Shown here: positions 7,445 through 53,537 of the stretch, piece by piece
Layout of the letters: the number at the start of each line of letters is the position of its first letter
Numbering within the stretch: position 1 is the first letter of the stretch
Source: a virus
Taxonomy: Duplodnaviria > Caudoviricetes
Virus record (IMG/VR): IMGVR_UViG_3300028025_001707
Coordinates: 1-56,485 of that record
Reading direction: 5' to 3' (one strand)
Length of the DNA stretch: 56,485 bases
The notes under the pieces: model-generated
Databases searched by the model: none
Told to the model about the DNA's origin: nothing
The model's input: only the letters and a program-made list of their open reading frames with translations
Translations under genes and position numbers: made by a program

Positions 7445-7615
7445 ATGGATGTCAGACTAGTAACCTACGTTAACTCAGTTATGGACGAGTTCAACGAGCT
7501 CGGTTCAGACCTTTACGAGTCCATGATAGATATGGACAGAGAGGTAGTAAAAGACACAGCTATCAAGCTTAAGAAACTACTGAGCGACATACAACGATCC
7601 TACCATGAAGAATGA
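7445..7615 (+). CDS. 56-aa hypothetical protein not in the ORF track (MDVRLVTYVNSVMDEF...)
   Basis: Translated by hand; fills the gap between the promoter and the next gene. Confidence 0.7.
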   Translation: MDVRLVTYVNSVMDEFNELGSDLYESMIDMDREVVKDTAIKLKKLLSDIQRSYHEE

Positions 7616-11800: not shown

Positions 11801-14800
11801 GAGTTCAGTCTCTTTCTTCTCTCTATCAGTAACACTTTCTTCCTCAATTGCCTTTATTATTTCGTTGATCTCTTTAAGAGTCATGCTTCCATCAATGATA
11901 CCTAAGTCTACTAGGTCTTGATACTCCTTTAGCTTCTCGTTCTTAAGTTGCTCCTCTTGTTTTTGGAGCATATCTTCAGTGTAAGTATTAATAGCATCAA
12001 TATCAGCTGCGTTCTTTATTGCAAAGTTTGTATCATCTTTTGATCTTTTAACTGCATTAAGAACAGCATTTGCGTTTTCTATATAAGCCTCTATATCCTC
12101 AACCATTGCAGGATTAACTCTAGTGAAGTCCTTGGCCATTGCAACTACATTAGCCTGGTTATTCTTCATGAAGTTCTTTATGCTCTTTCGTACCTTTTGT
12201 GCATTTGAAAGTATGTTCTGGTACTCTGCATTTTTAAACAAACGCTCAGCGTACTGTAAGAATCTATCAACCATTACAGGATTGTCTACATTTAAGTAGA
12301 CTATCTTCTTAGCTAAAGTTGAGGCCTGATTAGCAGTGATTGTTCCTTGACGCTTCATGTTGTTGACTGCTGCAACAATCATTCTCTGCTTTCTTTTTAA
12401 ATCAATCTGTGCCTCTCTAGCTGCTTTTGCTTCTAATCTAAGCTGACTTTTAAGTGCTGTTGCTTCATTCACCACTACCTTCTTAGGTGTGGGTTTGCCA
12501 AGTACTTTAGCTACAGATGGTGCTTTCTTTATCTTACCTCCTAAAGAGCTAGTTAACTCACGTACAGCCTCTTCTCTTTGCTTATCGTTTGCATTTACAT
12601 ACCAGTCATTTTTCTTAAGGTCTGCCATAGCAGACTCTCTTGCTTTCTGCTCTGTATTGCCACGCTCTATAGATAGATCGTACTTCTCTTTGGCTTTAGA
12701 TATAACTTCGTTTAGTTCTTTTTTATATTTACCTAATGCTGTTTCAACATCTTCTTTTGTAACTCCGTTTCTAATTAGTACATTTTTTATAGCACTATCG
12801 GAATATCCATTATCTCTAGCTTTATTTATGAAGTTCTGTACATTGTCTCCTACTCTAAATCTAAGTTCAGCAGCACCTTTGCCTGCTTCCTTGGCTTTAA
12901 ATTTAGGACTTAATGCTTCACCTTTAAATAAATCAGCTAGACCTATATTTATAAAATCATCAAGAGACATCTTATCTAGATTCTCATTGAATTTTTTATC
13001 TTTAAATATTTCTTCACTAGTAACAAAGAAATTCTTTACGTACTTAAATAATGCGTTTAACCAATTTTTAAATTGTTTTTTCTTAGACTCATTAATTATT
13101 GTCTCACCTTTAGTTGCTATTAATTCAACTAATGCCTCCTCTCTAGCTAAATCATTATCACCGTACTTACTTATAGCTTGTTGTAAAGCTTTTGTTCCTT
13201 CAACTAAAGATAATCCCTTTGATAATAATGCATCTCCTTTTTTACCTGAAGCATTTGATCTAAGAAAATCAATCCATATATGGCCGAATTCATGTATAGG
13301 GGTAGCTAAAGAATCTGACTCTGGATTAAGGTATATCTTTCCATCCTTAGTCATACCAAGGATAACCTTTCCTTCAGATTCTTTTGTTCTTACGCCTTCC
13401 TCTTGAAGCACTCTATCAAATTCATCTTTACTATTTGATACTGCTACATCAGGAAAAGCAAATCTTAATTTAGCAGAAAGTAATTCAATATCATTAGTAT
13501 CTATTGAAACTTTGGCTCCTCTAAATGCTTTATCAATAAAAAATGCTCCTCCAACTTCATCTCCAATCTTTTGCTCTGAAGGAATTTCTCCTTTTTTATT
13601 TTCTTTAAATACCCTAGTTGCTTTTGCTTTCCATTCTGGGAACACATCTAGTCCATGCTTAGGATTTGATATTAATGCAATAATTTGTCCCTTGGGTCCA
13701 AACCCATAGTTACCATGTTCAACAGGTATAACACCTCCATTCAACACATCGATACCAACAACTGATACAACATTCCCTTTAGGTGTCTTCATCATTGATG
13801 GTTCAGATATATCATTGTATATTGTATCAGCTAAGAAGGCTTTTGATTTAGGATCATTCTTTGTACCAAAAAGTGCGTTTACTGTATTTTTAGAAGCAGT
13901 CTTAATTCCTTGCTGTGATATCATTAAATCAAACAATAAGCTTCTCTCTGATAATGATAGTGTATTTTTTACATCTCCCTTAGCTCTATTATTTGCATCT
14001 ATCACAATCATGTCAAATAATTGCCCAAGCGAATCAATATTATTTGATGATATAAATTCATCTAATTTATTTGCAGATTTTACAATAGGTTTTTGACTTA
14101 CTTTTTTCTTTACATTTATATCCCCCTTCAAAGCCTCTAATGCAGCACGTTGATTTTGTTCTGGTTGAGACTTTACTAATGGAGCTAGATACCTAAATAC
14201 AGCTTCATTTGAATTTACAGCAGTATCAGCCATTCTCATAATCGCCATAGGTACATGACCATTGGGTAACTTACCTTCTGCCCATAACTTATCAAATAGA
14301 TTCTTGTTGTTATTATAAAGTTCTAATGCTTCATTGTATTGTGTCTGTGCTCCTTCTTTAGTTACACCAGCCCACGCTGCATTCTTATTTTTACCAAGAA
14401 CATTATATAGTAATCCACCTTCAACATCCATTGTGTTACCAACAGAGTCTACAACCTTTCCAGCTGCCAGTGTATCTGACATGCCTACAACCATCGGTAT
14501 TCCTTCAAATGATTCTATTGTTCTTGTTTCAGCAGTCCCTTCTTTTACTTGTGACTTACTTTCTTCAATAGGATTAACTTGAATATCTTGAGATAATGTA
14601 GGTGTAACAAAATTAGCTTCGTATGCAGGTAATTTATCTAGATTAGTCTCTATACTTTCAATATCTATATCTTCTTCAGCAGGAATTTCAATACCTTCTA
14701 CTCTTAGTCTTGGCTTAGTCTCTGATTTAATCAGGCCTAAGTCTTCAGCTAATTTAGATTCAAGGTCAATCTCTTCTTCAGTAGGTTCAACTACTTCTTC

Positions 14801-17455
14801 TTGACCGACTGCTTGACCTTCTTCGGTAACGATTTGAGGTTCTGCTTCGGGTTTTCTTTCCTCCATTTCTCCGCTAACTGCGGCTTCTGGCTGTACAGGT
14901 ACTTCACCTGCTGCTTGCTTTTGAACGGCATCTTCTGATATTGTTTTAAGTTGGTTATTAATTTCGGCAATTCTTGCCTTTTGAGCTGCAACTAGATTTT
15001 CATCTTTGCCAGCTATTTCTTGCTCAAGTTTTTTTCTTTCACTAAGAAGTCTAAATGATTCTGTTTTATCAGTTACGTTATCAGGTATCTCATTTAAAAG
15101 TCCAATAGATTCATTTAGTTCCTGAACCTCAGCTCTTGCTTGTTCTTTTGTTATTTGACCAGATAACACTTTTGTTTTTACATCATCCTCAAATAACTGC
15201 TTTAAGTTAGGATCCTGTATAAGTCGTTCTAAGTTATTTACCTGATTAGCTGTTCTTACTTCTCTTGCTGTACTTAAAGTCTGAGATACACTAGACATTA
15301 CAGTACCTCCAATCATACCAAGCTTATAGCTTTCTGACATTCTGCCTACAATTTCTTTAAAAGAAGGATTTTTAAATACTTCCTCTCCTTTTATTTCATT
15401 GTATGCTGATTTAATTCCTATGTCAGCTAGCTCTTGTAATGCTTCTGTTGTTCCCTCCACATTACCTTTAGCTGTTAGACTTATAGCTCCTTTTGCAATT
15501 AACGCCTTGACACTAGAGTTGATTCTATTGTCAATCATTTCTTGAGTAGCATTTTTAGGTAAATCCTTGAATGCTTTTCCAAGTAAATAAGATGTTATAT
15601 TATATCCAGCAGGTGTCTTAGAGAACCACTTAGACATACCTAATGATTCTAATTTAGATGATACATACGCATATGCACCACTCATTAAAACTTTATCAGC
15701 TTCATCAATACCTTCAGTATTTGGATCTGAATTTATTTGATCTTTAAAGTTCATGTATGAACTAGCAAATAAACCTATTTGCTGTGGTGACAATAATGCT
15801 TTTTTAGCAATACTCTTAAGTATTTCAACTCCTGTCTTTTTAACTAATTCTTTTCCAATAGCTTTTCCAGCAATCTTTACTGCCCCTTCACCTACAGCTT
15901 TTGCTAAACCAGCTCCTCCAACTGGAACTGCTACAGATGAACCCAAAGATTCTGCTATCCCAGAAAGCACTCTTTCTAAAGCAGGTCTATCTTTACTAGT
16001 TATATACTCATCAGTAATTACACCTGGAAGTATATCTTGAAGCTCATCTTTTCTTAATGTCTCAGTACTAAATACTCTGTTTCCTTGTGAGTCGTATACT
16101 GGCTTATTATATTCGCTTATTTCAGCAAACATCCTAACTGGAGAAATAAATCCATAAGCAAAATTTGCAAGCATGTTACTTCCAAAATCACCTCTTTCTT
16201 CTTTTGCTAAGTTTGCTTCTACAACAGTCTTTTCCATCAAATCTCTGTCGTCATTTATTGACTTCAGTTCATCTGACATTTCGTTGTATTTTTGAACTAC
16301 ATCGTTCTTAATAAATGTATGCTGTTCGCTATTTAAAGCCTCTTCGTATTGCTCTTTTGTTATTAATCCATCAGAGTAATCTTTCTTTAAATTATCTTCA
16401 TACTCTTTTACTTTTCTGCTTTCTTCTTTAAGAATAACAGAGTTACCTATAAGTCTTGAAGTTTTATCTTTGAAATCTTTATCGATATCTTTTATGGTCT
16501 TATCACCAAACATAGCAGCAGACGCATACTTTCCTTTGCTTAATGCATATCCTTTTCTATAAAACTCTTGTTCTTTTATTTTTTCGTTTATCTGCTCTAA
16601 TTCTTTATCTACTTGATATACAGGTCTTTCAATACCTGACTGACGTTCAAGTAATAGCTGTTCTCTTTTTTGAACTAAATTATTGTATTCTCTAAACTCT
16701 AGGTTACCTTCAACAAATGCCTCAAGCATGTTCTTTTCAGTCTCACTTCCATCTAGATCAATAACTATATTTTGACCAGTCTTTTTATTAGTGACTTTTA
16801 ACATGTCACCCATACCAGTTTCTTCGAAGTCAAATATGTCGTACTTAGTTCCTTTAAATTTATCTACCAGATCAGTTACTGCTTGTCCTTCACTTTTGTT
16901 TACATATGAAGAAACTTCTTTTGATAAATTAGATATGTTATTTTTTTCTACAACAATAGGATCATCTTTTTCTAGTGCCTTAAAGGTTTCTTTGAAAAGT
17001 TCTTGTTGTTGTTTTTGCTCATTTGTTTGAGTTTTCCTTTGAATATTTACTTCAGGCTTAGCCTCTGGCTTCCAGGTCAAACCTTTTTCATATTCAGCAT
17101 CATACAATTTCTTAGCATCTTTCTCAAGTGCCTGAACTCTTTTATCTACATCGCCTTTCTGTAATTTTATAAAATTACCAGACCTATTATTATCTACATA
17201 CCATCCATCAGCTGCTTTCTTAAAGACAGCAAGTTGATTACCTGAAGCTGTATATAGTCCTTCAGGCTTTCCTCCAGAAGATACCGATGGCTTTTGAGTC
17301 GTTGTTTTTACTGTAGCCGATGTAATACCTTTTCCTTGAGGTGGAGAAGATAATTCCGTAGAACGTTTTTTTTTTACACCTAACACATCATTTGGTGAAG
17401 GAAGTGATGAACCACCTTTTAGTATTTGATCTGGTGACGGTAATCCGTTTGACAT
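8885..17455 (-). CDS. Giant (2856 aa) internal virion/DNA-ejection protein, polyvalent-protein-like, with a zincin HExxH motif
   Basis: Last gene of the structural operon after two ejection-type proteins; PIHEFGHIW at 13280-13294 with downstream EEALVE; mostly helical. Confidence 0.7.
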   Translation of the reverse strand: MSNGLPSPDQILKGGSSLPSPNDVLGVKKKRSTELSSPPQGKGITSATVKTTTQKPSVSSGGKPEGLYTASGNQLAVFKKAADGWYVDNNRSGNFIKLQKGDVDKRVQALEKDAKKLYDAEYEKGLTWKPEAKPEVNIQRKTQTNEQKQQQELFKETFKALEKDDPIVVEKNNISNLSKEVSSYVNKSEGQAVTDLVDKFKGTKYDIFDFEETGMGDMLKVTNKKTGQNIVIDLDGSETEKNMLEAFVEGNLEFREYNNLVQKREQLLLERQSGIERPVYQVDKELEQINEKIKEQEFYRKGYALSKGKYASAAMFGDKTIKDIDKDFKDKTSRLIGNSVILKEESRKVKEYEDNLKKDYSDGLITKEQYEEALNSEQHTFIKNDVVQKYNEMSDELKSINDDRDLMEKTVVEANLAKEERGDFGSNMLANFAYGFISPVRMFAEISEYNKPVYDSQGNRVFSTETLRKDELQDILPGVITDEYITSKDRPALERVLSGIAESLGSSVAVPVGGAGLAKAVGEGAVKIAGKAIGKELVKKTGVEILKSIAKKALLSPQQIGLFASSYMNFKDQINSDPNTEGIDEADKVLMSGAYAYVSSKLESLGMSKWFSKTPAGYNITSYLLGKAFKDLPKNATQEMIDNRINSSVKALIAKGAISLTAKGNVEGTTEALQELADIGIKSAYNEIKGEEVFKNPSFKEIVGRMSESYKLGMIGGTVMSSVSQTLSTAREVRTANQVNNLERLIQDPNLKQLFEDDVKTKVLSGQITKEQARAEVQELNESIGLLNEIPDNVTDKTESFRLLSERKKLEQEIAGKDENLVAAQKARIAEINNQLKTISEDAVQKQAAGEVPVQPEAAVSGEMEERKPEAEPQIVTEEGQAVGQEEVVEPTEEEIDLESKLAEDLGLIKSETKPRLRVEGIEIPAEEDIDIESIETNLDKLPAYEANFVTPTLSQDIQVNPIEESKSQVKEGTAETRTIESFEGIPMVVGMSDTLAAGKVVDSVGNTMDVEGGLLYNVLGKNKNAAWAGVTKEGAQTQYNEALELYNNNKNLFDKLWAEGKLPNGHVPMAIMRMADTAVNSNEAVFRYLAPLVKSQPEQNQRAALEALKGDINVKKKVSQKPIVKSANKLDEFISSNNIDSLGQLFDMIVIDANNRAKGDVKNTLSLSERSLLFDLMISQQGIKTASKNTVNALFGTKNDPKSKAFLADTIYNDISEPSMMKTPKGNVVSVVGIDVLNGGVIPVEHGNYGFGPKGQIIALISNPKHGLDVFPEWKAKATRVFKENKKGEIPSEQKIGDEVGGAFFIDKAFRGAKVSIDTNDIELLSAKLRFAFPDVAVSNSKDEFDRVLQEEGVRTKESEGKVILGMTKDGKIYLNPESDSLATPIHEFGHIWIDFLRSNASGKKGDALLSKGLSLVEGTKALQQAISKYGDNDLAREEALVELIATKGETIINESKKKQFKNWLNALFKYVKNFFVTSEEIFKDKKFNENLDKMSLDDFINIGLADLFKGEALSPKFKAKEAGKGAAELRFRVGDNVQNFINKARDNGYSDSAIKNVLIRNGVTKEDVETALGKYKKELNEVISKAKEKYDLSIERGNTEQKARESAMADLKKNDWYVNANDKQREEAVRELTSSLGGKIKKAPSVAKVLGKPTPKKVVVNEATALKSQLRLEAKAAREAQIDLKRKQRMIVAAVNNMKRQGTITANQASTLAKKIVYLNVDNPVMVDRFLQYAERLFKNAEYQNILSNAQKVRKSIKNFMKNNQANVVAMAKDFTRVNPAMVEDIEAYIENANAVLNAVKRSKDDTNFAIKNAADIDAINTYTEDMLQKQEEQLKNEKLKEYQDLVDLGIIDGSMTLKEINEIIKAIEEESVTDREKKETELRRFLNTRFDRYSTIIKDMLKTKVDPFTGDEVEVSEKDREVLKRLMNVNLDAMSIKNAYTIVESMDNFIVNGITDGLDGAISTYEGDVAAKEARAEGIKAKKIRFLFSPVSGRALYENFATLPVLFDSMFRGVKSGMSIMKKMGFDLLSNGTAKAMNIYNKAINEYGETFAKKRPNDQAFNTSYNAYERGMLAYLKRTVPGNERAQKAELKRRIGLIKESINTLNEYGNDDQLKMAELYQEVFDKLGLSDGDVTIEQIESNTDSINADAVNWWIDQWSKHYSELYDVSLSVYNTKLGKDINYTTDRLSRVDGERELVDEATGKVGAFALDLGLVSYKDKAGVLMESNKDFKSLDTGKKSTTRFVNLDFDMSNAGSLKSALIDVNTASAIRRVDAFLNSRSYEKLFQEEKDAKLLKRRVENYILRYKNKMSFSDATLGDLDKYLDVIAAVGATRALGGPSQAVLQTVPVSLSTMINAGVRNMDFAGMVSDTDFHTWLNNSGYAIGNRGMETSTAIESANKYLDKAPDTKGAAALGYVKKLNEFWLKKFLSQPDVWIARNSWKAYYTQSLKEQKLYNGKIDWTTHKLNKEAADYAQHMVDRQQNVSDAAMMGDFMNSPQPIKKIVRKVVLPFANFIMNQKTRLYSDIRTLSTLSQSTAEDKWKAIRSLGGLTAEMTAYNAISYALKLYVYDAIASALTGYEDDEEEKEKNKRNRKKFVLQNLVKDVFSPLPVTDGLTIQGFNAIADLVQEKTASQEDINQAVEERNLYLENRGKDPMTEKEKEKFIKEFVDSQKMVFEEYGTKQWIDLGTATIAFDKAVELYEMIAMTTTGKFEKEFKGNKVEKVILPEDKTAMGIATTFSALYNLGLLPREFNSEAMSIKKYVQKKAMSEDQLEDYKTIKKETGDVDGYKMDLLKSKMKIDNVLEEIDWVESLGGLTKEQSVEYSKLRKIQGEVYASDIAKIKKGMKAEKIYK
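14791..14931 (-). CDS. 46-aa basic protein nested out of frame in the giant ORF (MPFKSKQQVKYLYSQKPQLAEKWRKENPK...)
   Basis: A-rich start context; resembles MPFKS-type small phage proteins as I recall them; the host frame here is a low-complexity linker. Confidence 0.6.
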   Translation of the reverse strand: MPFKSKQQVKYLYSQKPQLAEKWRKENPKQNLKSLPKKVKQSVKKK

Positions 17456-19007: not shown

Positions 19008-19748
19008 TTAATATGGATATTGAAGACCAGTTAATAAACTCATGCCATAATCAGGAGATTGTTGCCTGTTTGCATAGTTAGCAGCTTGTTGTTGAGTCAT
19101 TGGCCCTTGGACAGCAAAATTAGTGTTAGCCATCTTTTGATTCCATGCTGCTTGTGCCTCGCTTACTGGTAATGTAGCAGCCCTTTTTTGTTGATACAAT
19201 GGAACAGCTTCACCTGCATACCCAACCGCTGTGCCAAGTCCTTGAACTGCACCACTAATACCTGCATATATATTTTCTTGAGCCTGAGCCGCTGCTCCTT
19301 GTGCGCCTTCTAGTTGCATAGTAACAAAATCTCTTTCAGCCATTGTATTACGAGCATTAGCCATCTGTTGTGCTTGAGCTTTCTGTAAATCCAATCCCAT
19401 CTGCGCCTCGTTAGCCTGAGCCGCTAATTGAAGTTGTTGCTCAGAACCTACTTGCATCATTCCAGGAAGCGCCCCGATAACAGCCTCTGCTCCTGCACCT
19501 TGTACAGACTGGATACCTGACATCATCGCACGGTCTGCTGATTGCTGTGCTAGTTCGAACCCAAGAGTAGGCATTTCAATATCTTTGAATGCGTTCTCTT
19601 CCTTAATATTTTTCATTCTATTAGCAGCAGCTGCTGCTGACTGCTGTGCTCTCTTTCGTTCTTTATCAGCTTGTACTGCTTGATTGACGCTTAGTCCAAC
19701 ACCAGCTAAGGCTACCCCTGCTGATATTACTGCTGTTGCTGCTGCCAT
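19008..19748 (-). CDS. Probable internal virion/pilot protein (T7 gp14-like position)
   Basis: Ala/Gly hydrophobic N-terminus, Ala/Gln-rich helices and a second Gly-rich hydrophobic patch. Confidence 0.65.
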   Translation of the reverse strand: MAAATAVISAGVALAGVGLSVNQAVQADKERKRAQQSAAAAANRMKNIKEENAFKDIEMPTLGFELAQQSADRAMMSGIQSVQGAGAEAVIGALPGMMQVGSEQQLQLAAQANEAQMGLDLQKAQAQQMANARNTMAERDFVTMQLEGAQGAAAQAQENIYAGISGAVQGLGTAVGYAGEAVPLYQQKRAATLPVSEAQAAWNQKMANTNFAVQGPMTQQQAANYANRQQSPDYGMSLLTGLQYPY

Positions 19749-20230
19749 TTCTTTCTGTTTAAAAATAAAACCTGAATAAGTCTAGACGACTTACCAACCC
19801 CAAAGTTACTGAAAATATTTCGACTGTGTAATAGCTCTGAATCAAAAATGATCATCCTGTTGAAATCAGAGAAGAACCTAACCTTCAGACTTTTGTCATC
19901 GTTGTATATCGTAGTTCCATCATTGGGAATATTTTCACTGCTTAAGTACAGTATCGCAGTCAGGTCACCCATCATCTCATCGCTATGTATGAAGTTAGGT
20001 TCTATCTGTCCTTCAGGTGATATACGCACAAAGTTATGTGCTACCTCGTACTCGTTACGAAGGAACCAAAGAACCTTCTTCTGCACCTCGTCATCTAGGC
20101 GTGGCTGTATTCCTTTGAATACACCTACATCTGTATCTACGTCGTAGAACTCTTTACTGAATATGTCTTCAAGATGCTCCTCTGGGTTATCCAAGAAGTC
20201 ATCTATTACATTAAACTGCCTTAGCTTCAT
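19727..20230 (-). CDS. 2OG-Fe(II) oxygenase
   Basis: VIDDFL, HxD (IHSD), AILYL, GTTIY, FNRMIIFDS, distal His (LHSR) and RLIQVLF. Confidence 0.8.
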   Translation of the reverse strand: MKLRQFNVIDDFLDNPEEHLEDIFSKEFYDVDTDVGVFKGIQPRLDDEVQKKVLWFLRNEYEVAHNFVRISPEGQIEPNFIHSDEMMGDLTAILYLSSENIPNDGTTIYNDDKSLKVRFFSDFNRMIIFDSELLHSRNIFSNFGVGKSSRLIQVLFLNRKKWQQQQQ

Positions 20231-20634
20231 AGTAACTTTATCATCTCTTGGCAGCCGCTGCTACCTAACTGATATCCACATGCTTGATACCTATCTATCA
20301 GAGGCTTGCTCTTAAGAGATGTGTATGCAAACTTATACCCTTTATCCTTTGCTATGTCTGTAAGCGTATATATAAGTGTATCTAGCGCAATTACTCTACT
20401 GTCTCTATCCTTGAACTCTGGATTAGATACGATGTACTCGATCCACACGGTCTTAGAGTTTGTGAAGTATATGAACCCAGCACACACATCAACCTTATCT
20501 ATAGATACAATTAAACCTCCAGCACCATCTTGTGGGAGCATATCCTTAGCAGGAGGTGTCCACCTCCAACCTTTCCACCATCCAACTAGTATATTGTCGT
20601 AGTCTTCTGGCTGTAAGAATCTAATGTCTATCAT
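20227..20634 (-). CDS. GNAT-family acetyltransferase-like protein
   Basis: WIEYIVSNPEFK...LIDRYQACGY; sits between tail and internal-protein genes, like T7 gp13. Confidence 0.65.
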   Translation of the reverse strand: MIDIRFLQPEDYDNILVGWWKGWRWTPPAKDMLPQDGAGGLIVSIDKVDVCAGFIYFTNSKTVWIEYIVSNPEFKDRDSRVIALDTLIYTLTDIAKDKGYKFAYTSLKSKPLIDRYQACGYQLGSSGCQEMIKLL

Positions 20635-21419
20635 GGGAAACTCTTAAACGCTGATGTCTCTACATCGAATAGCTCAACCTCTCCAAATGAGTTATTTATA
20701 AGCTGAACCTCCATGTAGTATCCACGAATACCGTAAGACTCAGCTACGTTATTCTTAACTATAAATATCATATCCCCAACCGCAGGTGGTGGTGGTGAAG
20801 TAGATGGGTCAGGTATGTAATCCATTGCGTCTCCTGAGAAAGAAGATATATAACCTAAGTAAGTCATTGTATTACTTAAGGTATTAAACTTATATACTCT
20901 ATCTCCAACACTTACATTTGAAGGTATATTGAATGGGAAGAATATTGTAGGGCCAGCAGGGTTTACAAAGTTTGTTCTTCCAATACCTTGCGTAGATATT
21001 GAGTTAGGATCTATTATTGATACAGAGTTGTTACGTATGTATGCAAACCATCCTCCTTCTTTTAGATCGTAGTAGCTCTCAAGAACAGATGCGTACCCAA
21101 GGTCTGTAGTTATGTTAGCCTCCCAAGTATCTGTAGATTCAAGAGCTATAGTCTTGAACATCTTATTTGTTGTAGGGTCCTGGTTAAATATAGTTGTTAT
21201 TGTAGAGTTGTAGTGATAGTAATGATTACCTGGAAGATCGAAGTTACGATAAAAATCATTCCTATACAAAGCAGCTGATGAGTCATGCTCATAAAGATTA
21301 CCATTCTTCCACGTATAAAAAGTGCTGTTTAATCCCAACATCCAGTCTGGGTAAAAGCTCCAGAATGAAGTCCATCCCTTAGATCGTGGTGAATATGTTA
21401 CTGTAATCTCTCCTGCCAT
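20631..21419 (-). CDS. Tail nozzle/stabilisation protein, C-terminal part encoded as a separate gene
   Basis: TYSPRSKGWTSFWSF...NKMFKTIALES...KEGGWFAYI...GIRGYYMEVQL...ELFDV; contains SPPPP. Confidence 0.6.
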   Translation of the reverse strand: MAGEITVTYSPRSKGWTSFWSFYPDWMLGLNSTFYTWKNGNLYEHDSSAALYRNDFYRNFDLPGNHYYHYNSTITTIFNQDPTTNKMFKTIALESTDTWEANITTDLGYASVLESYYDLKEGGWFAYIRNNSVSIIDPNSISTQGIGRTNFVNPAGPTIFFPFNIPSNVSVGDRVYKFNTLSNTMTYLGYISSFSGDAMDYIPDPSTSPPPPAVGDMIFIVKNNVAESYGIRGYYMEVQLINNSFGEVELFDVETSAFKSFP

Positions 21420-21437: not shown

Positions 21438-22352
21438 TTAGACCAAACAGCTACTTACAGACTTCATAAAATTGTAGTAGTTGTAAGAACACCTACTGTC
21501 ACTTATCTCTAAGTCAACGTTAAAAGGGTAGCTATCTATGTAGTCAGCTTTAAAGAACATACCCTGATTTGCGTCTGGCACTCCTGCGTTATGGAAGAAC
21601 GATAGTTCGTACCACCTCTCTATTGAACATGTAGCCCAGCAGAAGTCAAACTCTTTAGGCACAACAACCTGATGACCTAGCTTCCATCCTACCCACAGCT
21701 CTGCCCACATGGACGCAGTCCACACCTGTATACCGTATGGATCACCTTCTTGTTTTAGATGACTTACTGAGTTAAGGTACTTATATAGTTCGTTAGATGT
21801 CTTGTATACTTGTCGCCAGTAGTCTCCATCTATATTCTTCATAAGCTTCTGAGCACCACCACTGTTAGCTTGGTTTGCTTCAACTATAGCTCTATCTATA
21901 CCTACAACAGCACACATGCCTTCAAGTATCTCGTGACTCTTACTCTTGATATAGTCAGCACCTATGTAGCTCACAGTATCACTGAAGTACCACTTGTCGT
22001 CTTGTAAGAATGGTGTGAAGTCGAAGTACTTAGTAAATAAGAAGTCGCAGTCATGGAAGAATATAGCGTCATCCTTTAAGTACGGATGCTCGTCAAAGTG
22101 CTTCGCTAGTATATACGCCTGAACGGATGGAGGATAGAAATCCTCCTCCCTATCGTCCTCGTAGAAGAAGAACCTTACGTAAGGAAACTTAGCCTGCACC
22201 TTGCGCCATGATTCAGGAATATCGCCATAGTATCCTGCAACAACATCGATGTAGTTGCCGTTGTACCCCAACTCTAAAAAGTTGTGAAGGTATACCTCAA
22301 CCTGCCACGCATAGTAATCGTTAGCAGGTTGAGCTGATAATAGTCTTAGCAT
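21438..22352 (-). CDS. GT-A glycosyltransferase resembling GT96/GT95 protein O-glycosyltransferases (304 aa from MLRLLSAQ)
   Basis: YYAWQVEVYLHNF, DFYPPS, DxD motif (FFHDCDFLF), GGAQ, WTASMWA and FFHNAG; ATG at 22352 overlaps the upstream stop (ATGCTAA). Confidence 0.7.
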   Translation of the reverse strand: MLRLLSAQPANDYYAWQVEVYLHNFLELGYNGNYIDVVAGYYGDIPESWRKVQAKFPYVRFFFYEDDREEDFYPPSVQAYILAKHFDEHPYLKDDAIFFHDCDFLFTKYFDFTPFLQDDKWYFSDTVSYIGADYIKSKSHEILEGMCAVVGIDRAIVEANQANSGGAQKLMKNIDGDYWRQVYKTSNELYKYLNSVSHLKQEGDPYGIQVWTASMWAELWVGWKLGHQVVVPKEFDFCWATCSIERWYELSFFHNAGVPDANQGMFFKADYIDSYPFNVDLEISDSRCSYNYYNFMKSVSSCLV

Positions 22353-25222
22353 ATAATTGAATTTCCAGTCCAATCGTTTCCGTCCCACTCGTAGGCTACT
22401 GACCCAGTAACTAACATGTACCAAGCTGCTGGAACAAGTACGTATATAGAACCAGTCCACTCATACAGCTTGTTACCTATCGTACCTAACGGCCCGTCTG
22501 CGTAACGCTGTATGATAATACCGCTACATACATTCTCCTCTGTTTCCTTCCTTACAAATACAGCAGTAAGTGGAGGAAGTGATGTTGTTGTAGTAGTTGA
22601 TGTAGATGTTGTTGACGTACTTGTAGTCGTAGTAGTTGACGTGGTTGTTGTGGTTGTAGTAATCCCTGTACAGTCAGAACACTTCTCGTATGTGAAAAGT
22701 ATATAGGCTAACGGAGTAGTTGGCATCTTTGTGTTAGCTAGTTTATAACAGTTACCATCGTCAGCCTTAACAATTGTGTCGTTAGGTAAAACTGAAAATG
22801 ATATCTGTGCTAACGTAACTATTGCCCCACCTGAACATAGCCTAGCGTCGTAGTACTGAGTAGGTATAGTCGTTGTAGTCGTAGTAGTCGTAACTCCTGC
22901 GCATGCTATAACATTCAATACCTGTCCTGTTGACGCAATTTGTATAGAATAATCTGCACCATCGTAGAAATAATACCAGCTTGATCCACCATTAAAAGGT
23001 GAAGCTCCTAACGAGTCAGAGTAAACAAAGTTTCCTACAACTGGGTATGCGCCTCCTCCGTTATGATACAGCGTAAGGTTAAGCGGAAGATTGTTCATAC
23101 ATGCATTAAAGCTGCTAGCGTATGGATCGCTTGTGATCATAAACGAAGTAAGCACTGGCGCTGTAGTCGTTGTAGTAGTCGTCGTTGTAGTCGTAATACC
23201 TAGACAAGATGTACAGTCTACGAATGGACCTTCTGTGTGATCTATTATTATATAAGGATAAGATGGAGTAGTTGTGTTAACTATCTCCCAACAGTTTCCA
23301 TCTATAGTCTTAACGATATCTCCAACTATAAACCCAGTAGAAGTTGTATCAACTAATATACCTATAACTAATCCGTCAGGACAAAGCGTAGCTTCGAACC
23401 AATCTCCTGTAGGAAGGGTAGTCGTTGTAGTCGTTGTGGTTGTTGATGTAGTTGTAGTAGTAACAGTAGGACATTCGTTCTTGTCGCACACGTTACCAGT
23501 CTCACATACCTTAATAGAGTATGTTGAGTGGTCTATCTTGTACCATACACCTCCACCCATGAACTTCTCTTGGGCCTTGTAGTCAATGTAAATTGTATCA
23601 TTTACTGTAGGTACTCTTCCGTTACCGTTGTGGTAAAGAAGTGTATACACTGGGTCTACAACGCAAGCTGCGTCACCAGTGTCACCTATGTTCTCAACGT
23701 CAATAGCGAAAGGTGTTAGTCTTATGCCTGTGTCAACATTGATAGATAAATTACTTTGTAAACTAATGCCTACACAATTACCTGCCTCTACAATTATATC
23801 GTATTTACATGCTTCATTAGCTGTGCCTGACAGAATTCCTGATGTTACATCAAACGAAAGACCTTCAGGAAGTAGGTAAGACTGACATGCATTAGTTTCT
23901 GTAGATGTACCATCACCACTAATCAGATTCATAGTTCCAGTCTGCCCACAAACTGTAGTGTTTCCATTTATGTTTAACGTCACATTCACAGTGTTTCCAT
24001 CACAGTCTGTATACTGGAATAATGAACCTCTAGTGCCTCCAGTTAATTCAAAAGTTGCACAGTTAGATATTAGTTTCCAAGACGTAGGGTTATTTGTTGC
24101 TGCAAATGATATGTTTACTGCGTTACCCTGAGTTATGTATATATCGTCTTGGAAGATAAAAGGAACGGTGTACTCTAAGCAGTCACATCCACCAGACGAA
24201 GTGACAACTCCTTCAGTACTAACACCTACATAAACACCACCTGATGATGGCGAAACCATAAGTGGTGTGGTGCTCATTAAGTGAAGAGCATTATTACCAT
24301 TATAAACTGTTGATCCTGCTGCCTCACTGTAGATAGTGTTGTTATTATCTGGAAGCGCATTAATGCCATCGTGCCAGTACTGCGTTGCAGGAACTTGTGT
24401 ACATACGTTAGATACATCTCCGTCTGTAGGATCTAGATAAAAAGTTGTAAGTGATGGATTAACCTTAGTAAGTGTCCATGAGGAAGATACCAATGGAGAG
24501 TATGCGTACACGTACCCTTTATCTATAGCTGAAGAGAACTTACTGAAGTCCATACTCCCAACACCATTATCAACCAATCCATCGTATGGTGATACGAGTT
24601 TAATGTCATCTGGGTCAATACCTAATGCAATAAGCGCATTGTAGTTTGCAGATGAGTTAAGACCTACGTACCCAGTGTCTGCAACTACAGCATTATTGTA
24701 AACCAATATAAATCTAGTTGGAGCACCAGTAATATTATACTGAACAGATGCACGGCCAATGTCAAGTCCAAAATCAGACTCTATATACCTAGTCGTTTGA
24801 TCTCCTATATAAGATACTACGCCTCCAGTCATAGTGTCTGTATAGTCCCATATAAGGTATAAGTTTTCGAAGTTGTTTGGGTTGCTAAACACAAACGTTC
24901 CCTCATACCTACCTCCAACTAAAGTTACAGGTACTTGTGTAGCTAACGAAATAATAATATCTCTGTCCTTGTCAGTGTAATTCTCATTAGTAACTAGGTA
25001 GTATACTTTGTTGTTTAATGTAGGCTGTAGATCCCTAACTTCTGTACTAGTTCCAATAATACCAGTCTTAACAGTTACTGTAGACCCATTATATGGCATG
25101 TAGTCTATACCTCCAATACCAGTAGCCACATCGAAAAGAGCTACCTGATTTTCATTAAGTACTACATTATCAAATTCATAATTTAAACTACCTGTATAAC
25201 TAAATCCTTGATCTGTTCTCAT
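22346..25222 (-). CDS. Cys-rich, mucin-like tail-associated protein with an Ig-like domain and four poly-Thr/Ser tracts
   Basis: LPEGLSFDVTSGILSGT (He_PIG/Ig-like), repeated Cys modules and Thr tracts; follows the nozzle gene by 3 nt. Confidence 0.75.
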   Translation of the reverse strand: MRTDQGFSYTGSLNYEFDNVVLNENQVALFDVATGIGGIDYMPYNGSTVTVKTGIIGTSTEVRDLQPTLNNKVYYLVTNENYTDKDRDIIISLATQVPVTLVGGRYEGTFVFSNPNNFENLYLIWDYTDTMTGGVVSYIGDQTTRYIESDFGLDIGRASVQYNITGAPTRFILVYNNAVVADTGYVGLNSSANYNALIALGIDPDDIKLVSPYDGLVDNGVGSMDFSKFSSAIDKGYVYAYSPLVSSSWTLTKVNPSLTTFYLDPTDGDVSNVCTQVPATQYWHDGINALPDNNNTIYSEAAGSTVYNGNNALHLMSTTPLMVSPSSGGVYVGVSTEGVVTSSGGCDCLEYTVPFIFQDDIYITQGNAVNISFAATNNPTSWKLISNCATFELTGGTRGSLFQYTDCDGNTVNVTLNINGNTTVCGQTGTMNLISGDGTSTETNACQSYLLPEGLSFDVTSGILSGTANEACKYDIIVEAGNCVGISLQSNLSINVDTGIRLTPFAIDVENIGDTGDAACVVDPVYTLLYHNGNGRVPTVNDTIYIDYKAQEKFMGGGVWYKIDHSTYSIKVCETGNVCDKNECPTVTTTTTSTTTTTTTTTLPTGDWFEATLCPDGLVIGILVDTTSTGFIVGDIVKTIDGNCWEIVNTTTPSYPYIIIDHTEGPFVDCTSCLGITTTTTTTTTTTAPVLTSFMITSDPYASSFNACMNNLPLNLTLYHNGGGAYPVVGNFVYSDSLGASPFNGGSSWYYFYDGADYSIQIASTGQVLNVIACAGVTTTTTTTTIPTQYYDARLCSGGAIVTLAQISFSVLPNDTIVKADDGNCYKLANTKMPTTPLAYILFTYEKCSDCTGITTTTTTTSTTTTTSTSTTSTSTTTTTSLPPLTAVFVRKETEENVCSGIIIQRYADGPLGTIGNKLYEWTGSIYVLVPAAWYMLVTGSVAYEWDGNDWTGNSIIC
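22580..23461 (-). repeat. Four poly-Thr/Ser coding tracts (~22580-22660, 22868-22891, 23162-23194, 23417-23461)
   Basis: ACN codon runs with mixed third positions, separated by Cys-rich modules. Confidence 0.9.
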
Positions 25223-25225
25223 TTC

Positions 25226-28200
25226 TTATTTAAATTTTCCTGGAACTGGTTTAATAGGATTATTAATAACAACGCTTATCACGTTTCCAACTTTACCAAC
25301 TCCTTGCGTAAGTATAAACTCAAGAGTCTTGGCTCCACAGTATGTAACCACAAATTTAACACTTCTATTTGAACCTGTGTTGTTTACACTTATAATTGAA
25401 GTGATAGGAGTAGTTCCAAATCCAAACGTCTGGTAGTTAGAAACCCAGTTAGTACCTGATCCTAAGCTAACTACAGATATAGTCCAAGAAACATCTCCTA
25501 TGATTGTGAACAGAGAGTTAGCAAGGTTAGATGTATTAGATGGTACATTTTTAGAGTACCTATTAAGCCTAACGTTACAGTTAAGAATTGTTGTATCGTT
25601 ATTAGCTAACACATAAGCTTGGTTATGAGGATCATAACATCCTAACTTCTGTGTGTTAGGGTAGTCACGCATAAGCTCTATAAAGTAGTCCTGCATACCA
25701 GTGTTTGATATCTCATCCATCTGGTTGCCATAAAGACCCATCACAACACCTCTCCTTACATCTGTGAAGTATATATCTGTACCCCACACTGCAAATGATT
25801 CAGGGTTTAAGCTGATACCATACTCACCAGGGAATGCAATCTGTGTACCCAATACCTCTGGCACAGAGACTACTGAACCTCCACCAACTGAGTCAGATAG
25901 CAAGTTCTTTCCGTAAAGAACTGAACTTACTTTATTCTCTTGGAATACTAACAAGTCAGTATCTCTTGCGTGAAGCTTTTGAATAGATCCGAACTCACTA
26001 TCTAAGTACTTGAAGTTTGCTCTAGATAAGTTAAACTCATTAAGTGCGTTAAAGTCAGTATTCTCACCATACACACCACTATAGGATATAGCGTTCCTAC
26101 TTACCTTCTGCTGATACTCATCAATAATAGTAGTAACCCTTGGGCTGTACTGTAAAGTAGCAGCAGCGTAGTCATCACGTATCCTAAACGTCTCTAGTGC
26201 GTTACCGTAACTCCATGCGTTAAAGTCAGAGTTTACTGTACTATTAGGATTGTTTATCTTAATAACCGCACCACTATTTGTAGATGTCTGATCTTGCTCA
26301 ATTAAATCATATGCAACTGATCCAGGGCTTAATGGTCCTGCTACAAAACCTAAGTCGATAACAATGTTGTACGGATTTGGAACAAAAAGTATTTCGTACA
26401 TACCTGAGAACCAACCACCATCTATATATACAGTCTCACCTGCAACATAGTTATGCATCTCATCTGTAGATGTTGGAGTTGCGGATGGGTTGACTTGACC
26501 TAAGTTTGTTTTACCTAAGTTCGGTCCTGGGATATTAAAGTATGTTGAGTCTTTATATTTCCAACGAACTCTATGCTTACCATTCTCTATTTTGAATGTT
26601 CTTGATAATTCATGGAACACATCTATATCTACATCTTTAGGTGTTGTCTCAGCTATAATCTGGTTGCTTATTCTTCTGATAGTTAAATCTCCAGTTAATA
26701 TATTAAATTCAGGTGGACTAGTATCATTATGCCCATATCCCATTATAACCATGAACATAGGATTAGATAATTGGGTCGCCATATCTGGGAAAATAACATT
26801 AGGTACATTTTGTGTACTTTGATCTATTCGACTAAATGAAGGAGCATTTGTACCACTTGATTGCAACCCCCAATTATAACCTCTTCTAAATGATATTGCC
26901 TTTGCATCTTGTTCTACTCCATTTCTATCTACAGCTTGAAAATTTTGCCATTCGCCACTTTCAATAAACCACTCTTCTATATTTTCATATGTAGCTGGAC
27001 TTGGTGGAAATATTTGTTCTGTTGTATAAGCTTGATCATTATACGTATCATTTATTATCTGTATAGTAACAATGTCACCTTCATTTATTTTCTGTAACGA
27101 TGAATTTGTTTCACCTAATACTAGATAGCCACCAACATTATTATTCCACAATATATTATATGGTGTTGATGTAGGAACTAATGCACTAGTATTTAATATT
27201 CCTTTTCCACCAAAATAATTTTCTACAAATAAACCATTTCTTGATCTAGCATTTATTTTCCATACATCTCCAACAGTAGGAATATAATTCCATTTTATTT
27301 GACATAAAGGAATACCTCCATTATATAAAATTTGATTACCAAATGTTATACTTAATACTGTTCCACCTGAAGCATTTATATCTGTTGTATATCTAAATTG
27401 ATTATTACCTAATGCCTCTACAGTTATTCTATAGTCTTTATCTAACACATTACTTACAGGTGGAGTATTGTTATTTGTAACAGAAATTGCTCCAGGAGAA
27501 CCATTTCCATAATGTATTGGATTTTCAATATATTCATACATTTTTCCTACTGGATTTGGAATAATACCACTATTTAGTGGGCTTCCTAATACGTTTGCAG
27601 CAGCATTATCAGTTCCTGTAGATGCAAAATACGCAGTAGTAATACCAGTTTGTAAATCTAATTCATTTGGAGAATCTACCTTTATTTTAATATAAAGACC
27701 AGGAAAAGCTCCTGTAACAAAACCAGATGCTTTATCTTTTATCTCAAGTATTTTATATTTCTTGTTGAAAAATGTTGGTCCAGCTGGAGTTGATTTAAAA
27801 ATCAAATAATCTCCAGTACTTACTTTTTCTCTATCTGATTCGTTAATCATAAAGTACCTATAACTGCCACCAACCCTAGCGTCAATAGGAAATATGTTAT
27901 AGTACTGATCTCTAGATTGTTTAATTATAACTCTATAGTTTGTAGCCCAAGAAGGAGGGTTATTACTAATCCTAAGCTTTAAACTATTCCCTTTGTCTGA
28001 TTGAGTTGGAGGTATATATGTAGTATTACCTTGAGATGTAAGTGCAGTAGTTGATCTACCGTACTTATCTAAGTAAATAAGTCCAAGCTCATAGTCTCTA
28101 TCTGATCTAAATGTCTGTGTAGGCACATTACCTAATCCATCAATAGAAACGTACTTAACATCTAATTTTACAGGAAAGTCTATATCGTAGAACTGTGTGT

Positions 28201-29245
28201 AGTTACCGTACATAATACGGTTACCAACATAGTCCTGTGCTTTTGCAAGTAATGGTACATTATCAAAAAGCCTTGTCACTTGACCTTCAGGAAGAAGTGT
28301 GTAAGTCTTATTATTATTAAATGTAAAACTATAAAATACATCATTAGATAAAGCAATTTCTTGTTTATCTATTGTCTCAACAATTAAGCAGTTTATACTT
28401 CTTGCGTCACGCATTATGACCTGAACTTCTTTAACAAATTGACTACCAGTAAAAACTGTAATACCAACTTCGTTAAATCTATTCACCATAGATTTATTGT
28501 TACCAGCTCTAAAATCTAGCTGATAGTCTTTAGGTTTGAACGCAACTGCTGAGAAAGGTGACAACGCACTGTACTGATCGTCAACGTACTTGTACCTATA
28601 AGAGAAGTATAAGAACTTCTCCTCCATGTTGTTGGACTGAGTACTTGTATTATTAACTAACGATATCTTCGGTGCGTTTAACGGTGGAGCTAGAATAACA
28701 TTAATGTCTTCATCAATACGTGGATCATCTATAGAATAACCAGAAGTACCAAGTGAGTTACTCTTTACACGAGCAATATTAATACGTCTAGGTGGGTTAA
28801 GATTATCTGTCCAGTAAAGGAATCCATCGATAAAGTTAACACCTGTTATAAGGAATTCCTTATTAAAGTTAAGCTTACTTTTAGTTGATGGAGTAAGCTT
28901 GTTAGACTGCAATACACGTACAGTTGTACCTATTGTCGTGTCGTACTCATATATCCCATCAAACTTATCTGAAGTAACGAACCAGTAAATAAATCCATCT
29001 CTCTCGTTAGCTACAGCACCAATCGTCTTAGCGTCAGCAGCTAATGGATAAGGAAATCCAGCAACATTCCAAACATTAGAAACTAAAAGGTTACCCTTCT
29101 TGTTCTTTACAGCACCGATATTACCACCGTCAGCAGTGTCTATATCAACGTTAAGTGCATCACGGTACACACCATCAGGTACAAGCCTCTCATCGAGGTC
29201 TTTGTTCATTATACCTGCTAGAAAACTATTCTTTAATTCTGGCAT
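25226..29245 (-). CDS. Tail nozzle/stabilisation protein (P22 gp10/T7 gp12-like position), N-terminal and major part
   Basis: MNKDLDERLVPDGVYRDALN, LYWTDNLNPPRRIN, FSYRYKY, FGSIQKL, YGISLNPESFA; C-terminal BACON-like segment. Confidence 0.75.
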   Translation of the reverse strand: MPELKNSFLAGIMNKDLDERLVPDGVYRDALNVDIDTADGGNIGAVKNKKGNLLVSNVWNVAGFPYPLAADAKTIGAVANERDGFIYWFVTSDKFDGIYEYDTTIGTTVRVLQSNKLTPSTKSKLNFNKEFLITGVNFIDGFLYWTDNLNPPRRINIARVKSNSLGTSGYSIDDPRIDEDINVILAPPLNAPKISLVNNTSTQSNNMEEKFLYFSYRYKYVDDQYSALSPFSAVAFKPKDYQLDFRAGNNKSMVNRFNEVGITVFTGSQFVKEVQVIMRDARSINCLIVETIDKQEIALSNDVFYSFTFNNNKTYTLLPEGQVTRLFDNVPLLAKAQDYVGNRIMYGNYTQFYDIDFPVKLDVKYVSIDGLGNVPTQTFRSDRDYELGLIYLDKYGRSTTALTSQGNTTYIPPTQSDKGNSLKLRISNNPPSWATNYRVIIKQSRDQYYNIFPIDARVGGSYRYFMINESDREKVSTGDYLIFKSTPAGPTFFNKKYKILEIKDKASGFVTGAFPGLYIKIKVDSPNELDLQTGITTAYFASTGTDNAAANVLGSPLNSGIIPNPVGKMYEYIENPIHYGNGSPGAISVTNNNTPPVSNVLDKDYRITVEALGNNQFRYTTDINASGGTVLSITFGNQILYNGGIPLCQIKWNYIPTVGDVWKINARSRNGLFVENYFGGKGILNTSALVPTSTPYNILWNNNVGGYLVLGETNSSLQKINEGDIVTIQIINDTYNDQAYTTEQIFPPSPATYENIEEWFIESGEWQNFQAVDRNGVEQDAKAISFRRGYNWGLQSSGTNAPSFSRIDQSTQNVPNVIFPDMATQLSNPMFMVIMGYGHNDTSPPEFNILTGDLTIRRISNQIIAETTPKDVDIDVFHELSRTFKIENGKHRVRWKYKDSTYFNIPGPNLGKTNLGQVNPSATPTSTDEMHNYVAGETVYIDGGWFSGMYEILFVPNPYNIVIDLGFVAGPLSPGSVAYDLIEQDQTSTNSGAVIKINNPNSTVNSDFNAWSYGNALETFRIRDDYAAATLQYSPRVTTIIDEYQQKVSRNAISYSGVYGENTDFNALNEFNLSRANFKYLDSEFGSIQKLHARDTDLLVFQENKVSSVLYGKNLLSDSVGGGSVVSVPEVLGTQIAFPGEYGISLNPESFAVWGTDIYFTDVRRGVVMGLYGNQMDEISNTGMQDYFIELMRDYPNTQKLGCYDPHNQAYVLANNDTTILNCNVRLNRYSKNVPSNTSNLANSLFTIIGDVSWTISVVSLGSGTNWVSNYQTFGFGTTPITSIISVNNTGSNRSVKFVVTYCGAKTLEFILTQGVGKVGNVISVVINNPIKPVPGKFK

Positions 29246-41819: not shown

Positions 41820-42105
41820 TGCTTCTTGCCCTTCCCTCTGCAAATCCTCCACTACCAGATAACACAACTGGCATAGAACCAACAGTCTCTTTTGCACGCT
41901 CTGAATCTATACGCTCAAGTATAGATAGCGCATCCTCAAACGCAAGTCGCTTTGCAGCTGCTGCGTTCTTCATCTTATCAACTGACAAGTCATCGTCAAT
42001 AGAGTAATTTACAATTTGCTGTTCGAGTACCTTAATAAGTTCGTCAACAGACTTCTCTGCTGCACGTAGCACTCTGTCTTTTTTATCTCTTAGATTTTCA
42101 AGCAT
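41806..42105 (-). CDS. Probable terminase small subunit
   Basis: 99-aa helical protein overlapping the terL start; assignment by position. Confidence 0.5.
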   Translation of the reverse strand: MLENLRDKKDRVLRAAEKSVDELIKVLEQQIVNYSIDDDLSVDKMKNAAAAKRLAFEDALSILERIDSERAKETVGSMPVVLSGSGGFAEGRARSNAKK

Positions 42106-49635: not shown

Positions 49636-49864
49636 TCCTGTACGACTCTTCACCATTTCGGTAGTCGTGACCTTGGACAGCATCGTAGGCAACAACGTCA
49701 CCCTTATGTATATGCTCAGCAACTAAGTCGCTGACCTCTATAACCTCTGCCTCCTGGTATCGCTGCTTTACAATCTCAGCTCCAGTGAGTAACAACCCAC
49801 TCGCACTCTTCTGCTGCTCTACAACTAGAGGCTTAACTACAATAAAACTATTTAACGCTTTCAT
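49601..49864 (-). CDS. groES: Co-chaperonin GroES
   Basis: MKALNSFIVV...SASGLLL...GDVVAY...YRII..RDV; adjacent to groEL. Confidence 0.85.
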   Translation of the reverse strand: MKALNSFIVVKPLVVEQQKSASGLLLTGAEIVKQRYQEAEVIEVSDLVAEHIHKGDVVAYDAVQGHDYRNGEESYRIIQYRDVALIL

Positions 49865-53513: not shown

Positions 53514-53537
53514 TCTTTTTTTTTGACAAAGATAAAC

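Follow-up and report, generated by a model that had tools for sequence, protein, structure and literature searches.

Does a phage glycosyltransferase modify the threonine-rich protein encoded beside it? The question is raised by the linear virus record IMGVR_UViG_3300028025_001707, taken over its whole length (56,485 bp, with an estimated completeness of 93%; hereafter, the window). In its tail module, a protein of 958 amino acids (aa), P0002, is encoded immediately before P0001, a 304-aa protein with the GT-A fold of glycosyltransferases (GTs). A first-pass annotation of this DNA had described four Thr/Ser tracts in P0002 (with mixed codons, the longest of ~27 residues) and a stop codon overlapping the ATG of P0001, and this anatomy was confirmed by our analysis. 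It had also proposed that the enzyme acts on the neighbouring tracts, an idea that the co-occurrence of both elements in other genomes supports. Comparative genomics gives strong support to a functional coupling between enzyme and tracts; what we infer beyond it is that sugar is transferred to the tracts, that the chemistry is retaining, which sugar is used and what effect it has, physical or biological. We consider it probable that P0001 O-glycosylates Thr and Ser residues of the P0002 tracts before virion assembly, using a host nucleotide-sugar.

We have defined as a tract any run of 8 residues with at least 7 Ser or Thr, and a simple longest-ORF rule served to call open reading frames (ORFs). 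The four tracts of P0002 are uninterrupted Thr/Ser and contain no Pro. Their Thr codons are ACT (19), ACA (19), ACG (12) and ACC (4), and the longest run of a single codon is 3. Because all four ACN codons are mixed and same-codon runs do not exceed three, the tracts are no simple trinucleotide expansion. P0002 is the only one of the 51 long ORFs in the record that bears a tract.

P0001 falls in the PHROGs family phrog_4417 (function unknown; E 1.7e-65). The adjacency of its homologues to genes with Thr/Ser tracts, named with the original proposal as a way of checking it, was strongly borne out in four data sets and for unrelated acceptors (tail appendage, major capsid protein and tail-tube protein). 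The first set comprised four isolates and the phage loci that a search with the family alignment had returned; of its 84 loci, 83 gave an enzyme ORF (L064 was lost; in L064, L113, L114 and L116 a GTG-extended enzyme ORF reaches more than 90 nt into the upstream gene, and the count in the window's own clade, described below, used an overlap limit of 160 nt). A tract was present in the ORF directly upstream of the enzyme in 67 of the 83 loci, in the one directly downstream in 3 of the 83, and in 17 of 526 ORFs lying two or more genes away. Tract density was 4.97 per 1000 aa in the upstream ORF versus 0.23 at two or more genes' distance. With their tracts masked, the upstream proteins formed 19 similarity groups, 12 of them with tract-bearing members. 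Regarding the three near-complete genomes without an upstream tract, all of them encode poly-Thr proteins elsewhere, one with 12 tracts.

The second set was the window's own clade. The pair had been placed in the tail module, and its surroundings agree: the flanking genes match muzzle families (PF25731 and PF25729), several genes around it match PHROG 'virion structural protein' families, and P0001 and P0002 lie in a run of structural genes. From 80 loci with muzzle homologues we kept the 34 that hold the full interval between two muzzle-type genes and dropped the 46 that end early. Enzyme and tract occurred together in 26 of the 34, the enzyme alone in one, a tract alone in none, and neither in seven (Fisher p = 1.5e-6). 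In six of the seven loci with neither, the P0002 orthologue (41-54% identity) ends at about residue 584, three residues before tract 1, and the C-terminal extension was seen only where the enzyme gene is present. From this distribution and from the orthologues ending near residue 584, it follows that the poly-Thr-linked extension and the enzyme gene are gained and lost together. At least three gains or losses are required by a tree of the muzzle proteins built with a quick method, although the muzzle-gene tree may not mirror the history of the module.

The third set was made of cultured isolates, in which the tract count covers selected annotated proteins. In VPE25, 9183, bIL285 and R9.1, the enzyme gene comes after the gene of the major capsid protein, and in phiFL1A, phiCTP1 and 1706 after a tail-tube or major structural gene; in a Staphylococcus phage it stands directly after split tail-tube genes, and in two Herelleviridae it comes after the gene of a small Thr-rich protein. 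It lies within late structural operons, in lytic and temperate phages alike. Tracts were found in 8 of the 11 isolates, and in the other three (9183, phiCTP1 and 521B) the Thr runs at the corresponding site are shorter or broken up. C-terminal poly-Thr tails are borne by the tail-tube proteins of phiFL1A and VPE25 and by orf50 of bIL285. In R9.1, both capsid and tail tube end in a Thr run followed by SHV, and in 1706 capsid and major structural protein both end in a Thr run followed by HHD. Besides, the Staphylococcus phage has such tails on its tail tube and on a 120-aa protein, and the Lactobacillus phage Iacchus on two small proteins. In Gram-positive phages and prophages, then, the tag seems, from the protein sequences, to be a C-terminal tail on the major capsid and tail-tube proteins.

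Orthologues of the phiFL1A tail tube, 50-60% identical, allowed a direct comparison. The poly-Thr tail is present in both enzyme-bearing phages (phiFL1A and R3.3) and in none of the five enzyme-less ones (Javan47, 315.6, phiJL-1, cIP1 and Javan377), whose tail-tube proteins end at or soon after a conserved RPGE-type motif. Searched over their whole records, these five phages gave no member of the enzyme family, with a positive control at E of about 1e-98.

Finally, we analyzed contigs of bacterial and archaeal genomes, where 80 loci were kept of 124 relatives. Stand-alone enzymes (<400 aa) had an upstream tract in 31 of 42 loci and a tract anywhere in the locus in 34 of 42, while for long fused forms (>=400 aa) the values were 2 of 38 and 4 of 38, respectively (Fisher p = 1e-10 for the upstream tract). 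In many Bacillaceae prophages, poly-Thr is found at the end of three gene products, those of the capsid gene, a gene of ~105 aa and the tail-tube gene. The three products measure about 390-400 aa (capsid-sized), about 105 aa and about 205-225 aa (tail-tube-sized), with the enzyme right after the third; loci with this layout include L220, L231, L237, L248, L249, L260, L262 and L272, and a Staphylococcus aureus assembly (L241) has the same arrangement with two poly-Thr genes. The long forms, of 500-900 aa, come from chromosomal loci of Chitinophaga, Pedobacter, Sphingobacterium and Mucilaginibacter (L200, L203, L205, L207, L208, L210 and about 30 more), and a 558-aa representative carries a GT6-like domain. 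These long fused forms probably serve a different, cellular glycan pathway.

Several observations weigh against an action of the enzyme on the tracts. Adjacency is not universal: 16 of the 83 phage loci lack an upstream tract, 8 of the 42 stand-alone genomic copies lie in a locus without any tract, and in the own clade the locus L187, with a distant muzzle homologue, has the enzyme (310 aa) and no tract-bearing gene. The interval of L187 holds no P0002 homologue, and an unrelated 267-aa gene stands in its place. No tract was found in 34 of the 38 loci of long fused relatives (chromosomes of Chitinophaga, Pedobacter and Sphingobacterium), and therefore the fold family has other acceptors. The counts share ancestry, with 53 of the 83 upstream proteins in one similarity group, and they depend on the longest-ORF rule. 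In the annotated part of the window, whose annotation is incomplete, there is no sugar-nucleotide gene. Poly-Thr also occurs without the phrog_4417 enzyme: among 60 searchable viral records with (ACN)10, the enzyme family was found in 8 (8 of the 49 with an in-frame tract), compared with 75 of 50,697 isolate records overall, and only one of the five (ACN)10 records that are at least 90% complete has it, most of the 60 being fragments. An example is L344, a 99%-complete IMG/VR record without such an enzyme, in which a 192-aa protein (10034-10612) ends in T14. That protein is encoded at a tail-tube-like position, and a GT2-family gene elsewhere in the record may encode another kind of enzyme for such tags. 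More generally, where phrog_4417 is absent, other transferases may substitute for it or the tracts may be unmodified. Lastly, it is the coupling that genomics speaks for, and sugar on the protein is one step further, which we infer.

What the tracts would do in the protein is suggested by the architecture of P0002. A weak match to the Ig-like He_PIG domain (Pfam) lies within its core, at residues 430-495. Beyond it, two domains are duplicated, A1 (501-587) with A2 (688-777), at 34% identity (E 2e-14), and B1 (603-676) with B2 (786-854), at 33% identity (E 3e-10), and a terminal domain C spans residues 882-958. Among 15 orthologues, the positions of the tracts are kept, their lengths vary, and cysteines are conserved in the flanking domains. 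We built an AlphaFold model of residues 501-958 as one fragment on the alignment of these 15 orthologues. It shows five beta-rich domains with a predicted local distance difference test score (pLDDT) of about 80-93, separated by four segments of pLDDT <50 that match the tracts within a residue or two, and its predicted template modelling score (pTM) is 0.28. According to this model, the five domains would have no fixed mutual arrangement, like beads on a string, with the tracts as disordered linkers, so that the linker role given to the tracts in the first-pass annotation fits the prediction. A Foldseek search with the 501-958 model returned no solved relative at E<=0.001.

Regarding the enzyme, the longest ORF that covers P0001 starts with GTG at 22460 and encodes 340 aa; the 304-aa form is the likely product, because homologues align from residue 1-5 of the ATG-started protein. 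Between its ATG (22352-22350) and the TAA of P0002 (22348-22346), the two genes share 7 nt read in different frames; such an overlap is typical of translational coupling, which we would expect here. P0001 matched no Pfam family at E<=1, including Glyco_transf_8 (PF01501) and related models, and no NCBIfam family, and searches against PDB sequences, with the single sequence or a profile, gave only noise. The family itself is large, with 491 clusters in a word-indexed search and 829 representatives at E<=0.001 in an exhaustive one; by tblastn, homologues occur in the 75 isolate records mentioned above. Among ten longer relatives scanned, fusions with GT6, GT2 or DXD sugar-binding domains account for four, one has a radical-SAM/SPASM region, one a methyltransferase domain under the Pfam cut-off, and four have no Pfam domain.

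In an alignment of 56 sequences, four residues never vary (D103, H254, Q168 and K268); D101, which forms an HDxD motif with D103, is conserved to at least 90%. The AlphaFold model of P0001 has a GT-A fold (pLDDT 97.1, pTM 0.93), in which HDxD and H254 are placed as expected, the superposition being at the level of the whole fold; H254 would occupy the position of the third metal ligand of GT8-like enzymes. Foldseek ranked the catalytic domain of UGGT (GT24) first, with E 4e-7, followed by WbbM, XXYLT1, LgtC, GT6 enzymes and glycogenin, and in two fold searches the nearest solved folds over the whole catalytic domain were GT8, GT24 and GT6. We treated matches within one Z unit as ties, and since the top matches tie in this way, no specific family is assigned to P0001, which we read as an unclassified 'GT8-like retaining GT-A' on the strength of its model. 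The retaining chemistry is that of its fold neighbours and is presumed for P0001.

In plants, hydroxyproline O-arabinosyltransferase (GT95; Pfam HPAT) and peptidyl-serine alpha-galactosyltransferase (GT96) put sugar directly onto hydroxyls of repetitive protein tracts. The first-pass annotation had likened P0001 to them by four motifs, and these motifs are indeed present, on the most conserved columns of the family (Y13, W16, Q17, Y73, D101, D103, Q209, W211, M215 and W216). Membership in GT95 or GT96 found no support. The HPAT model (PF23452) gave no match to P0001 at E<=1 nor to the window record at E<=10; it matched 2 of 56 family members (best E 1.3e-4), none of 10 isolate homologues, and none of 42 related records above the cut-off of 23.9 bits, with one match at E<=1 that lies away from the enzyme gene. 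In a neighbouring ESM-Atlas cluster, HPAT was found on 10% of the members, and a distant relation between P0001 and GT95 is possible. In the portion of PMC8476585 available to us, GT95 is predicted to be GT-A-like and GT96 to have a novel, non-GT-A fold. The GT-A-like fold is thus a likeness to GT95, but one common to dozens of families and not diagnostic, while the fold predicted there for GT96 would not fit the model of P0001. Besides, the candidate acceptor here is Thr/Ser without Pro, in contrast to the hydroxyproline in Pro-rich motifs that GT95 uses.

The following mechanism would account for the observations. P0002 and P0001 would be made from the same late transcript, with the overlap coupling the synthesis of the enzyme to that of its acceptor. 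P0001 would act as a soluble, cytoplasmic, metal-dependent GT-A enzyme, its DxD and His binding a divalent metal together with the host nucleotide-sugar, and would move the sugar, probably with retention of configuration, onto the Thr/Ser hydroxyls of the tracts in the cytoplasm. Glycosylated P0002 would then enter the tail through its conserved N-terminal 584 residues, a location suggested by gene position. The product would be a tail appendage in which five small beta-rich domains and four densely glycosylated linkers hang from the core. Glycosylated linkers occur in secreted glycoside hydrolases and mucins, and by analogy the sugar-coated linkers may hold the five terminal domains off the tail and protect the disordered segments.

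Co-occurrence shows coupling and says nothing about which atom receives the sugar. One could therefore propose that the tract is a docking or recognition tag, with the sugar going elsewhere on the same protein or on a neighbouring virion protein, or that the enzyme extends a first sugar added by the host. Near folds of P0001 include, besides the direct protein glycosylator glycogenin, several extenders of protein glycans (UGGT, Skp1 alpha-galactosyltransferase, XXYLT1 and GlyE). We nevertheless regard it as unlikely. The acceptors (tail appendage, capsid, tail tube and proteins of 105-128 aa) have only their tracts in common, and a second transferase was not seen near P0001 in the window. Furthermore, O-glycosylation in Bacteroidota hosts is periplasmic, whereas the phage proteins fold in the cytoplasm.

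The tracts could also be plain flexible linkers, and the enzyme, carried as a mobile cassette, could act on a glycan of the host envelope (teichoic acid, the capsule or a receptor) and, for instance, prevent superinfection. It is well known that phages encode enzymes for changing the surface glycans of their hosts, the long fused chromosomal relatives are mostly tractless, and many poly-Thr phage proteins occur without this enzyme. We still find this explanation rather improbable, because a cassette leaves unexplained the tracts on unrelated proteins at separate sites, such as, in prophages of Bacillota, those of the capsid gene at -6/-7, a 105-aa gene at -5 and the tail-tube gene at -1 relative to the enzyme, and because tail-tube orthologues lack the tail exactly where the enzyme is absent. 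The model of P0001 is moreover a fully folded soluble domain with no signal peptide or membrane segment visible, and its gene is kept within late structural operons of lytic and temperate phages. As to glycosylation of phage DNA, in the manner of T4-type glucosyltransferases on hydroxymethylated bases, it is the role most often discussed for phage glycosyltransferases as far as the accessible portion of PMC12619734 goes, but we hold it to be very improbable here, as the annotated genes of the window include none for base hydroxymethylation or a related function, siphophage isolates carry the enzyme gene in structural and not in replication or nucleotide modules, the two Herelleviridae have it after a small Thr-rich protein, and DNA modification does not predict a link to poly-Thr proteins.

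O-glycosylation of the tracts by P0001 is then our preferred reading, and we lean, with somewhat less confidence, towards its extension to the whole family: phrog_4417 would read poly-Thr as a portable glycosylation tag, so that any virion protein gaining a poly-Thr tail or linker would be glycosylated, and would form one O-glycosylation system, not recognised before, that decorates capsids, tail tubes and tail appendages across several phage groups. These are marine and freshwater Bacteroidota phages, Lactobacillus Herelleviridae, and siphophages and prophages of Lactococcus, Lacticaseibacillus, Enterococcus, Staphylococcus, Clostridium and Bacillaceae.

Of the known systems, virion glycosylation in mycobacteriophages comes closest in its biology, yet it is a different one. 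In Che8 and its relatives, according to the parts of the reports available to us, phage glycosyltransferases modify structural proteins (PMC12619734, PMC13313380), the glycans are found at the C-termini of capsid and tail-tube subunits and they are said to shield virions from anti-phage responses (PMC12619734). Both systems associate a phage glycosyltransferase gene with virion structural genes, and, as far as those parts tell, capsid and tail tube are the subunits concerned there as they are in the Gram-positive phages with poly-Thr tails beside phrog_4417. However, the profile of the phrog_4417 family (A1) had no match in the Che8 genome at E<=10, and none of the 75 isolate records with a P0001 homologue by tblastn belongs to a Mycobacterium phage. 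The Che8 capsid ends in ...KTGS and its tail tube in ...SDGS, with no poly-Thr, while the tracts of the window are internal linkers of a tail appendage and not C-terminal tails. The major capsid and major tail genes of Che8 (L273) lie at 5051-5872 and 7613-8422, and the Gly-Ser ending that their products share may be a short acceptor motif of that different system.

The dense Thr/Ser tracts between folded domains and the GT-A enzyme with a DxD-type motif also recall the mucin-type O-glycosylation that GT27 GalNAc-transferases carry out on Ser/Thr-rich tandem repeats of animal proteins, and the linkers would, by analogy with mucins, be extended and bottle-brush-like. Here, the reaction would be cytoplasmic and not in the Golgi, and P0001 has no lectin domain. 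GT27 enzymes were not among the 50 matches listed in either fold search of P0001, which does not exclude them. GT8-type enzymes that act on proteins are glycogenin, the Skp1 alpha-galactosyltransferase and GlyE of the pneumococcal serine-rich-repeat pathway; P0001 differs from them in having no sequence-level match, with 8-11% identity in structural alignments. A64R of chlorovirus PBCV-1, involved in capsid glycosylation, matches the fold of P0001 less well than the GT8 group does, and this virus infects a eukaryote and has no poly-Thr acceptor. The capsid glycans of PBCV-1 are N-linked at atypical sites. We found no published link of phage poly-Thr tracts with a glycosyltransferase in a literature coverage that was incomplete, and an earlier description is possible. 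To the extent that the sequences allow, what appears new here is the enzyme family with its tag-like acceptor, phage virion glycosylation as such being already known.

The features discussed are collected in Table 1. Regarding the rest of the window, other genes suggest a phage of Bacteroidota, although the host is not established: there is a BT4734-like primase domain, the best isolate match is a Chryseobacterium phage, and homologues occur in assemblies of Flavobacteriaceae and Chitinophagaceae. Downstream of the pair, in the tail module, lie genes for a 2OG-Fe(II) oxygenase-like protein of 167 aa (19727-20230, minus strand) and a 135-aa protein (20227-20634, minus strand). The former matches DUF6445 (E 2.5e-6) and 2OG-FeII_Oxy_3 (E 9e-4) and, weakly and far under the cut-off, the NCBIfam FlmC family (E 0.0016); an oxygenase-sized gene is present in few relatives only (the window, L005 and L028). 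The latter is phrog_17252, of unknown function, and is kept at +2 in most close relatives. Both products may be further protein-modifying enzymes. A 1110-aa ORF (38565-41897, minus strand) with Hint and LAGLIDADG homing-endonuclease domains (PF05203, PF05204 and PF14528) looks like an intein within a large phage protein. An ORF of 2856 aa (8885-17455, minus strand), larger than any other gene of the genome, stands at the end of the structural block and has no Pfam match at E<=0.001. Besides, the window encodes a Cpn60/GroEL-type chaperonin (49848-51446, minus strand; PF00118, E 7.6e-59) and a 532-aa protein (51954-53552, minus strand) with a partial alpha-L-arabinofuranosidase B catalytic domain at residues 297-371 (PF09206, E 3.3e-8), which may be a glycan-degrading or glycan-binding virion protein.

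Table 1. Features of the P0001/P0002 locus, in positions of the window.
Feature	Position	Strand	Basis or comment
Upstream neighbour, 1339-aa muzzle-like tail protein	25226-29245	minus	Crassvirus muzzle PF25731; phrog_14478 virion structural protein
P0002, 958-aa tail-module protein	22346-25222	minus	ORF call
P0002 core, aa 1-584	23471-25222	minus	41-54% identity in relatives without enzyme and tracts
P0002 C-terminal extension, aa 585-958	22349-23470	minus	order T15 - B1 - T11 - A2 - T8 - B2 - T27 - C
Thr/Ser tract 1, aa 588-602, 15 residues	23417-23461	minus	sequence; pLDDT<50
Thr tract 2, aa 677-687, 11 residues	23162-23194	minus	sequence; pLDDT<50
Thr tract 3, aa 778-785, 8 residues	22868-22891	minus	sequence; pLDDT<50
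Thr/Ser tract 4, aa 855-881, 27 residues	22580-22660	minus	sequence; pLDDT<50
P0002 stop / P0001 start overlap, ATGCTAA	22346-22352	minus	sequence
P0001, 304-aa GT-A-fold glycosyltransferase, phrog_4417	21438-22352	minus	ORF call, fold and PHROGs
D101-C102-D103 codons, DxD of the HDxD motif	22044-22052	minus	after strand 96-99 in the model
Invariant H254 codon (FHNAG)	21591-21593	minus	alignment
Downstream neighbour, 262-aa protein	20631-21419	minus	Crassvirus muzzle C-terminal domain PF25729

If the tracts are glycosylated by this family, phage glycoproteins would be common and not peculiar to actinobacteriophages, and virion glycosylation would extend to well-studied dairy, enterococcal and staphylococcal phages as well as to the abundant aquatic phages of Bacteroidota. 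A family with hundreds of unannotated members would gain a function, and the combination of enzyme and poly-Thr would give a sequence rule to predict phage glycoproteins from genomes. Capsid and tail-tube proteins that run anomalously on gels or have an unexpected mass would also find an explanation. The two parts, a soluble enzyme of 300 aa and a short tag, would be a candidate tool for cytoplasmic O-glycosylation in bacteria, and the modification would bear on the stability, adsorption and antibody recognition of therapeutic phages.

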